Positions 23,475 to 24,020 of a stretch of 64,000 nucleotides of DNA are shown here, piece after piece. The first letter of the stretch is position 1, and each line of letters begins with the position of its first letter. Source of the DNA: an uncultured Chloroflexia bacterium (lineage in GTDB: Bacteria; Chloroflexota; Limnocylindria; Limnocylindrales; CSP1-4); the NCBI GenBank assembly GCA_963819655.1, contig CAWFXA010000001.1, forward strand, positions 588,481-652,480. Reading direction: 5' to 3'. Below the pieces are notes generated by a model. It was given only the letters and a program-made list of their open reading frames with translations, did no database searches and was not told the DNA's origin. Position numbers and translations under genes: made by a program.

Positions 23475-24020
23475 GTGTTCATCCTCTTCGCCGTGCCGGT
23501 CGGGCTCGTACTGGGCTTCCTGATGGGTGGACGACTCGATCGCCTGTCGGAGATCCGGTTCGCATGGGCGTGGCTGGCCATCGTCGGACTGGCCGTGCAG
23601 ATCCTCTTGTTCTCGACGCCGGTCGGCGGCTCCTTCCGCGGCGGGGTCGGCGAGGCCATCTACGTCGCCTCGACGGGCCTCGTGCTCATCGCGGTCTGGC
23701 GGAATCTGCGTGTCCCGGGGTTGACGCTGGTCGCGCTCGGAGCGATCTCCAATCTCGCGGCCATCGTGGCCAACGGTGGCGTGATGCCCACGACCCCAGG
23801 GGCCCTCGCGGCGGCCGGCCTCGATCCGCTCGATGGCTTCTCGAACAGCTCGGTCGTGCATGATCCTGCCCTTGCGCCGCTCACGGACATCTTCGCGATG
23901 CCGCCCTGGCTGCCATTCGCGAACGTCTTCAGCATCGGCGATGTGCTGATCGCGCTCGGCATCGTCGTCGTGATCGCCGTCGGGATGCGTCGCGGAGACC
24001 CCGCCCACCACCCCGCCTGA
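23475..24020 (+). CDS. DUF5317 family membrane protein
   Basis: GGRLDRL, SNLAAIVANGGVMP, LTDIF..VFSIGDVLI motifs; multi-TM. Confidence 0.85.
   Translation: MFILFAVPVGLVLGFLMGGRLDRLSEIRFAWAWLAIVGLAVQILLFSTPVGGSFRGGVGEAIYVASTGLVLIAVWRNLRVPGLTLVALGAISNLAAIVANGGVMPTTPGALAAAGLDPLDGFSNSSVVHDPALAPLTDIFAMPPWLPFANVFSIGDVLIALGIVVVIAVGMRRGDPAHHPA

Follow-up and report, generated by a model that had tools for sequence, protein, structure and literature searches.

Background

The closest described counterpart of the protein treated here is the lipoprotein signal peptidase LspA (peptidase family A8, PF01252; structures 5DIR, 6RYO and 6RYP). The protein in question is a member of the family DUF5317 (PF17248) and is encoded, followed by the gene of a micropeptide, in a stretch of 64,000 nucleotides (hereafter the window) from an uncultured Chloroflexia bacterium (assembly GCA_963819655.1, contig CAWFXA010000001.1, positions 588,481 to 652,480). 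For LspA, the excerpted account in PMC6952399 describes four helices, two aspartates (Asp118 and Asp136) near the outer surface, a beta-cradle and 14 conserved residues, which in Staphylococcus aureus are D21, K25, N52, G54, G102, N106, D109, R110, V116, D118, F132, N133, A135 and D136; an excerpt of PMC9360617 gives the dyad as Asp124/Asp143.

Like LspA, the DUF5317 protein is small and polytopic, with a predicted inside C-terminus and two outward Asp residues. In both proteins the second Asp stands where the last helix begins and the helix before it carries a G-x-x-x-N motif, and LspA is the best-ranked solved structure for the DUF5317 core. The predicted substrate of DUF5317 would likewise be signal-peptide-shaped and have small residues in the place of the A/S-G/A of the lipobox. 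In contrast to LspA, DUF5317 has five predicted helices and not four and lacks the cradle; between its Asn motif and its first Asp, about 33 additional residues with short strands are inserted. It occurs beside a true LspA and not instead of it, is often fused to major facilitator superfamily (MFS) transporters or to cyclic di-GMP (c-di-GMP) domains, and is linked to peptides without Cys.

Other described systems share further traits with the locus. Short hydrophobic pheromones are cut by an intramembrane protease, as in the SHP/Rgg systems with Eep, and enterococcal pheromones are derived from lipoprotein signal peptides. These systems share with the DUF5317 loci genes of about 25-35 codons encoding little more than a bare signal peptide, a functional C-terminus and processing within the membrane; however, their protease is a zinc site-2 protease, their receptor is a cytoplasmic one of the RRNPP type and they have no riboswitch or c-di-GMP link. 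Bacteriocin ABC exporters with a fused C39 peptidase domain are comparable in that a putative peptidase domain is fused to an exporter (DUF5317-MFS) and small peptide genes lie in the operon, but DUF5317 has an MFS and not an ABC partner, is membrane-embedded and of the Asp type and not soluble and of the Cys type, and lacks a double-glycine leader. Finally, paralogous peptide genes stand directly behind aptamers, as in c-di-GMP-I and c-di-GMP-II riboswitch operons (RF01051, RF03167, RF01786), whereas the peptide gene of the window has no aptamer. No paper describing micropeptides as the product of a c-di-GMP riboswitch was found in the literature searched.

The initial annotation of the window, made from the sequence alone, had read this DUF5317 protein as a divergent A8-like intramembrane protease acting on two signal-like peptides. 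Our analysis shows that the protein is not a member of family A8, points to a probable distant kinship of its core with LspA, and leads us to favour, at a rough probability of 0.45, the reading that DUF5317 may be an LspA-like intramembrane aspartyl peptidase of adjacent micropeptides.

Results

The DUF5317 gene (23475-24020, plus strand) starts with GTG and encodes 181 amino acids, of which residues 27-167 match positions 2-150 of the 151 positions of the PF17248 profile with 102.5 bits (E 2.8e-29; cut-off 25 bits); NCBIfam has no family for this protein. The family is large: of 1.84 billion cluster representatives searched, 3,068 are relatives with an E value no higher than 0.001. Among 101 Chloroflexota genomes sampled, DUF5317 was found in 36, and matches were also obtained in two genomes used as controls, those of Thermus thermophilus and Thermotoga maritima. 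No paper naming DUF5317 or PF17248 was found in the literature searched.

The motifs from which the initial annotation had started (GAISN, LTD and SIGD, with two Asp 18 residues apart) are all present. LGAISNL comprises residues 87-93 (G89 at 23739-23741, N93 at 23751-23753) and leads into the invariant columns of G89-A-x-x-N93...I97...N100 on helix 83-99 (23739-23774, plus strand), in which G89 and N93 are possible equivalents of LspA Gly102 and Asn106. The candidate first catalytic Asp, Asp138 (LTDIF, motif L-x-D; 23886-23888, plus strand), is Asp in 143 of 150 aligned rows, with a gap in 3 and another residue in 4; the candidate second one, Asp156 (SIGDVLI, motif S-x-G-D in the first turn of the last helix; 23940-23942, plus strand), is Asp in 136 of these rows, with 7 gaps and 7 other residues. 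Where both are present (134 rows), they stand 18 residues apart in 131. This 150-row set takes in fragments and fusions; in a 55-row alignment, composed of near-full-length representatives of 50%-identity clusters, the invariant columns are Q42, N77, G89, N93, I97, N100, P105, N124, D138, P147, S153, G155, D156 and G162. In addition, both Asp are kept in all 20 DUF5317 copies from other Chloroflexota classes, with a spacing of about 13-18 as judged by eye. Conservation of the two Asp had been set beforehand as a test on which the LspA proposal could fail, and both proved to be almost invariant in the family, far beyond what chance would give. The spacing had also been likened to that of LspA, and the LspA of this very genome does have 18 residues between its Asp pair; this agreement is weak evidence, however, because LspA spacing itself ranges from 14 to 26 (14 in 13, 18 in 10 and 19-26 in 4 of the 27 sequences that the search pattern matched among 31 Chloroflexota LspA).

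The AlphaFold2 model of the full protein (predicted local distance difference test (pLDDT) score 94.1, predicted template-modelling score 0.88) has membrane helices at 2-16, 32-45, 57-75, 83-99 and 154-170, with a loop of short strands at 100-153. Loops 17-31 and 76-82 and the C-terminal tail hold seven Lys/Arg residues, versus one in the remaining loops. According to the positive-inside rule, this clustering therefore predicts that the N-terminus and the long Asp-bearing loop lie outside and the C-terminus inside. As in A8 enzymes, the two conserved Asp are thereby directed toward the outer surface, and the second of them stands at the head of the last helix: D156 is placed in the first turn of helix 154-170 and D138 in the extended stretch before it, and the excerpted account of S. 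aureus LspA places Asp136 and Asp118 likewise (PMC6952399). In the predicted models, DSSP assigns bridges at 138, 140-141 and 151-152, just ahead of helix 154-170, which is compatible with a hairpin that would bring D138 near D156.

For the full-length model, Foldseek returned nothing at E up to 0.001. In that search LspA appeared only at rank 47 (5dir_C, E 6), although its template-modelling (TM) scores (0.40/0.47) exceeded all others listed; on the 145 candidates of Foldseek itself, 6ryp (LspA) took rank 1. When the core of residues 40-181 was folded alone (pLDDT 91.3), ranks 1-5 of 350,542 chains were all LspA, the chain at rank 6 having a probability of 0.06. The best core match was 5dir_C, with E 0.47, a probability of 0.84, TM scores of 0.49/0.47 and 3.5 Å over 130 columns. 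Residue 40 onward aligns with LspA residues of about 56-160, which comprise the end of the cradle and H2-H4. The comparison with LspA by Foldseek, which had been proposed in advance, thus gave a divided answer, LspA being the best-ranked solved structure for the core while the full-length model had no significant match. With VIA, the aligned range on 5dir_A ends at residue 171 of the full-length model and at residue 132 of the core model, in both cases on residue 158 of the chain, and these ends would set D156 on Asp143 (in what we take to be the numbering of Pseudomonas aeruginosa LspA) if the last helix aligned gap-free.

Other intramembrane aspartyl proteases were also considered. GxGD proteases (presenilin and signal peptide peptidase, A22; prepilin peptidase, A24) carry a YD-like and a GxGD Asp inside helices and have six or more helices. 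The S-x-G-D of DUF5317 resembles GxGD, but D138 is located in an extended loop segment outside the helices, of which DUF5317 has only five. Presenilin, prepilin peptidase and FlaK are absent from the structure matches listed (50 VIA rows and 27 Foldseek rows), which in itself does not exclude such a relationship. Among ESM Atlas look-alikes, PF17248 excluded, there was no usable match.

At the sequence level, each DUF5317 member was scanned against 24,736 Pfam models at E up to 10. Peptidase_A8 was the commonest non-self family, found in 5 of the 55 members (best E 0.0099) and 8 of the 150 (best E 0.093), and the next unrelated membrane families reached up to 3 of 150. The window protein itself matches Peptidase_A8 (PF01252) with 8.5 bits (E 2.9), under the 25-bit cut-off, its residues 70-168 covering positions 68-138 of 142, which is the catalytic half of the profile. 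In addition, the 55-row alignment was compared by hhalign with 31 LspA sequences cut from Chloroflexota genomes (L028 of genome G038 left out), which gave a score of 26.0, a P value of 0.0034 and a probability of 9.5%, D138 falling on the VVD Asp of LspA and D156 on its FNVAD Asp; at other settings the scores were 23.8 and 20.8 and the register was unchanged. The reversed alignment scored 13.2. When the LspA columns were shuffled, singly or in blocks of 5, none of 70 shuffles of either kind reached the real score (means 13-14, standard deviation 2).

Measured against the features of family A8, however, DUF5317 falls short. Besides its five predicted helices in place of four (H1-H4), it has plausible counterparts for about 6 of the 14 conserved LspA residues (G89, N93, L136, D138, G155 and D156), with N150 shifted by three places, and the linked peptides, its putative substrates, contain no Cys from the small-residue motif onward. 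DUF5317 is not a member of family A8. Since several defining features fail, the term divergent A8-like can denote a proposed distant kinship but not membership: the near-invariance of the Asp pair, its predicted outward placement, LspA as the best-ranked structure for the core and the neighbouring gene of a signal-peptide-like micropeptide without Cys bear the initial annotation out in part, while the 8.5 bits, the five helices, the missing cradle and the 6 of 14 residues do not. We nevertheless consider a distant kinship of the DUF5317 core with LspA rather likely, because two structure aligners, a profile-profile method and Pfam all pick the same small family.

The genome contains three DUF5317 copies. 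Besides the window copy, these are a paralogue of 198 amino acids (locus L003), about 104 kb upstream on the same contig and outside the window, and a fusion protein of 680 amino acids, with DUF5317 as its N-terminal domain and an MFS transporter behind it (locus L004/L165). The genome also carries an ordinary LspA (locus L001 1459-1986, minus strand; PF01252, 125.1 bits), which reads GGALGN...VVDF...FNVAD; DUF5317 is therefore not an LspA stand-in. LspA is present in 60 of the 61 sampled Chloroflexota, a tally that takes in genome G038. Apart from these, short LspA-like paralogues of 128-176 amino acids were seen in other Chloroflexota (L034 207-737 and L036 372-758, both plus strand), which match the C-terminal half of PF01252 only, with 21-24 bits and hence below the cut-off, and lack the cradle region.

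A micropeptide gene (24194-24292, plus strand; 32 codons and stop: MKNIIKSGAFRTLMLLSVLASSGLVLEAARRW) begins 173 bases downstream of the DUF5317 gene, with a GGGA ribosome-binding site about 6 bases upstream of its start. The encoded peptide, which belongs to a family of about 30 codons, combines a basic N-terminus with a hydrophobic core and the tail [AS][GA]x[RK]W. Of signal-like peptides such as the initial annotation speaks of, only this one is encoded in the window; a second was found beside the paralogue outside, where a similar small open reading frame (ORF) follows DUF5317 and ends in GAGIRWN (locus L003). The absence of a lipobox Cys was stated correctly. Pfam and NCBIfam scans of four micropeptides gave nothing but one weak match to KxYKxGKxW_sig (E 0.18).

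For a comparison of neighbourhoods, the best 80 of 542 confirmed matches in public genomes to a 9-row alignment query were selected and 79 loci fetched, all of them Limnocylindria-like. The micropeptide was found in 53 of the 79 loci by a strict pattern and in 59 by a hidden Markov model (HMM), almost always on the same strand and 100-500 bases downstream. A28, R31 and W32 never vary among 55 distinct sequences, and R11 and L24 hardly do. Two subtypes can be distinguished, type A ending in LVLEAGRRW and type B ending in LGAGMRW and often starting with GTG, and a third type of ORF keeps only the tail (A/S)GHRW without the hydrophobic core. One such tail-only ORF lies at L003 2280-2387 (plus strand) after peptide B, the end of which it overlaps in another frame, and like ORFs occur in L113, L119, L123, L124, L141, L143 and others. 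The micropeptide copies differ mostly at third codon positions, and all four Ala, all four Gly and six Arg codons are used in the motif (127 matches, including some chance ones elsewhere in the loci); selection therefore works at the protein level.

Genome-wide, among 60,274 stop-bounded frames, the HMM ranks highest (E about 1e-15) the two ORFs that neighbour the stand-alone DUF5317 genes; its fourth match (E 0.2) belongs to the operon of the third DUF5317 copy. A micropeptide of the family without an adjoining DUF5317 gene was seen at L167 around 2953-3048 (plus strand; genome C2 near 110047), with the tail LVAARRW and an HMM E of 0.0031; it is flanked by a lipoprotein-like ORF with a lipobox Cys and by an ORF of 930 amino acids on the opposite strand. 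In other Chloroflexota classes a small ORF abuts DUF5317 in 11 of 20 loci (10 upstream and 1 downstream), with the same build and other tails, e.g. AAGAPEGWPMP, ASGAPVSWPV or AIGADSGAGP.

Neighbours in the 79 loci were counted by targeted phmmer searches, and their domains were confirmed by Pfam on 29 ORFs. Two operon types emerged. The first, in 35 of the 79 loci and including the window, consists of a DinB_2-like gene, DUF5317 and peptide A; the second, also in 35 loci, of a GAF-GGDEF-EAL gene, DUF5317 and peptide B, followed by peptide A or a tail-only ORF. Both neighbours occur together in 2 loci, and one or both in 68 of the 79. In locus L103, an MFS gene and two divergent peptide genes adjoin a gene in which DUF5317 is fused to GAF-GGDEF-EAL; L108 resembles L103 in combining peptides and MFS with a DUF5317-GGDEF-EAL fusion. 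Other fusions are DUF5317-GAF-GGDEF and DUF5317-MFS, the latter in either order, and most DUF5317 copies of this class lie in open frames of 600-750 amino acids, which is the size of the L004 DUF5317-MFS fusion. At L113 5402-8308 (minus strand), a large AAA_16 and GerE (LuxR-type) regulator adjoins the cassette.

A c-di-GMP-I-GGC aptamer (65.8 bits; L166 4982-5059, plus strand, corresponding to C1:507981-508058) is located between the paralogous DUF5317 gene and a peptide B gene of 29 codons. Aptamers of the c-di-GMP-I class stand just before the peptide gene in 34 of the 35 related loci searched, a sample composed of 34 of the 35 GGDEF-EAL-type loci and L083. The operon of the third copy is headed by a c-di-GMP-II aptamer (62.2 bits; L165 5072-5153, minus strand), which is followed by a micropeptide ORF ending at 4889 (minus strand; tail AGGASLRGF, HMM E 0.2), an HD-GYP gene (3419-4360) and the DUF5317-MFS gene (1343-3382).

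In the window, no Rfam family and no c-di-GMP riboswitch was found in the spacer between DUF5317 and peptide gene at E up to 10. The spacer holds a conserved element (24076-24145, plus strand), composed of GGTACCGATGGCCTATGGC (24076-24094), TACGGT (24114-24119) and a hairpin GGGGAC...GTCCCC (24127-24145). Its core GTAC-N4-GG-N2-CAT, the TAnnnT box and the GC hairpin were recognized by eye in 24 of 24 spacers, with GGAC for GTAC in L142, and the element is probably a promoter or leader of the peptide gene. A scan of 22700-24500 for consensus promoters and terminators gave none.

One RNA-library contig of 255 bases, about 96% alike, spans 23363-23617 over the junction of the DinB_2-like gene and DUF5317, which is no proof of transcription. 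Two RNA-library runs (less than 7% of the sampled words) gave contigs only at 23300-23632 and 24336-24400, too thin to judge expression; none covers the peptide gene, which is no evidence against its expression. Co-folding of DUF5317 with the window micropeptide, using two alignments, gave scores of 0.16 and 0.26, under the mark of 0.32, and allows no verdict either way.

The DinB_2-like gene directly upstream (22830-23465, plus strand) matches Pfam DinB_2 weakly (E 1e-4); the coordinates are those of the longest ORF and the true start is uncertain. Further out, the window locus is flanked by an S9 prolyl-oligopeptidase-family peptidase gene with a PD40 beta-propeller (24339-26396, minus strand) and a 4-hydroxyphenylpyruvate-dioxygenase-like gene (21692-22969, minus strand); the S9 gene is absent from the conserved neighbours seen in the sampled loci. 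The sole gathering-level Rfam match in the whole window is a tRNA gene (49569-49640, minus strand).

Discussion

In the reading that we favour, the last three helices and the outward loop of DUF5317 would form an LspA-like core with the Asp pair at the outer membrane face, on the side where the A/S-G/A motif of the peptide would leave the membrane. The likely substrate would be the adjacent signal-peptide-like micropeptide, with its basic N-terminus, short hydrophobic helix, A/S-G/A motif and 3-9 tail residues. The A/S-G/A motif might be held at the Asp dyad in the way that LspA holds the L-A-G|C of the lipobox, with the peptide being cut near it. For the paralogues, a c-di-GMP riboswitch would switch the peptide gene, and c-di-GMP enzymes or an MFS exporter are either fused to DUF5317 or encoded alongside it, so that the DUF5317-peptide pair may be an output or an input of c-di-GMP signalling, as suggested by the riboswitches, fusions and linkage; the window copy would represent a riboswitch-less variant in an operon behind the DinB-like gene. 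An extended version, which we regard as rather unlikely as a whole, would see here a previously undescribed system of peptide maturation and signalling in which the peptidase cuts 'signal-peptide-only' products at the small-residue motif and thereby releases or unmasks the very short Trp tail, switched by c-di-GMP and coupled to c-di-GMP enzymes or MFS transporters, with DUF5317 as a second family beside A8 in the clan. In that case the second messenger would be wired to a peptide signal in the membrane or outside the cell.

Several results speak against a peptidase related to LspA. No single measure of similarity to LspA is significant, and the hhalign probability is only 3-10%. BLASTP of DUF5317 against the LspA of the genome gives E 2.8, searches of PDB sequences with the protein (phmmer) and with a profile were empty at E up to 10, and when the 24,508 open frames of this genome are searched, neither the DUF5317 nor the LspA HMM picks up the other family. 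Three of 70 shuffles in blocks of 10 columns match the real hhalign score; taken together, the signal is therefore genuine yet local and resides mainly in the block of FNxAD and the last helix. The register ahead of the first Asp is unsettled, because hhalign puts N124 and not N93 on the LspA Asn. As to structure, the cut at residue 40 was picked after the LspA-aligned part had been seen, which biases the ranking toward LspA. A beta-cradle is missing, loop 46-56 being short and helical and strands being confined to the 100-153 insert, and Asn52 and Gly54 have no counterpart; neither do Asp21/Lys25 (the early-helix D-x-x-x-K) nor Asp109/Arg110 (the D-R after Asn). Finally, 20 of the 79 related loci lack a micropeptide recognizable by pattern or HMM.

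A serious, if doubtful, contender is that DUF5317 is a non-catalytic membrane partner or sensor that binds the micropeptide and signals to c-di-GMP enzymes or the MFS transporter, its core being an old peptide-binding scaffold or a dead enzyme. Small proteins do act as regulatory subunits, as MgrB does in binding PhoQ. Fusion to signalling domains would be expected of a sensor domain just as much as of a peptidase, and the N-terminal position in GAF-GGDEF(-EAL) proteins and in MFS fusions is typical of membrane input domains; the tight GGDEF-EAL linkage (35 of the 79 loci) and a peptide tail conserved to its last residues (R31 and W32 invariant), as for a docking surface, point the same way. 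On the other hand, both Asp remain unchanged from class to class although the peptide tails differ (RRW in some, PEGWPMP or DSGAGP in others), a pattern that chemistry explains better than recognition of one tail; dead enzymes, moreover, usually lose their catalytic residues, and the window copy adjoins no signalling gene.

It is unlikely, in our view, that the resemblance to LspA is convergent or due to chance, with DUF5317 handling e.g. an ion, a lipid or a cell-wall precursor at the outer leaflet and the small ORF being an unrelated accessory subunit. Every score does lie in the twilight zone, and the many invariant Asn and Gln residues (N77, N93, N100, N124 and Q42) would suit a polar binding site; however, methods of three kinds pick LspA out of thousands (secondary Pfam matches, profile-profile comparison with Asp on Asp, and two structure aligners), and the structure alignment reaches about double the identity seen in the other rows. 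That DUF5317 is a second true signal peptidase II cutting lipidated prolipoproteins appears highly improbable. The Asp pair and a GAxxN motif are there, some bacteria have two lsp genes and several Chloroflexota have two PF01252 matches per genome. Against this stand the normal LspA of this genome and of nearly all sampled Chloroflexota, compared with the 36 of 101 genomes that have DUF5317, the lack of a beta-cradle together with 8 of the 14 conserved LspA residues, and linked peptides without Cys at the site.

Conclusion

DUF5317 is a large family without an assigned function, for which the link to LspA offers a concrete and cheap test. If the peptidase reading is right, the family would constitute a new kind of intramembrane aspartyl peptidase, and a class of unannotated micropeptide genes would be explained. 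c-di-GMP riboswitches would then govern the production of peptides, which bears on the inputs and outputs of c-di-GMP in non-model phyla.

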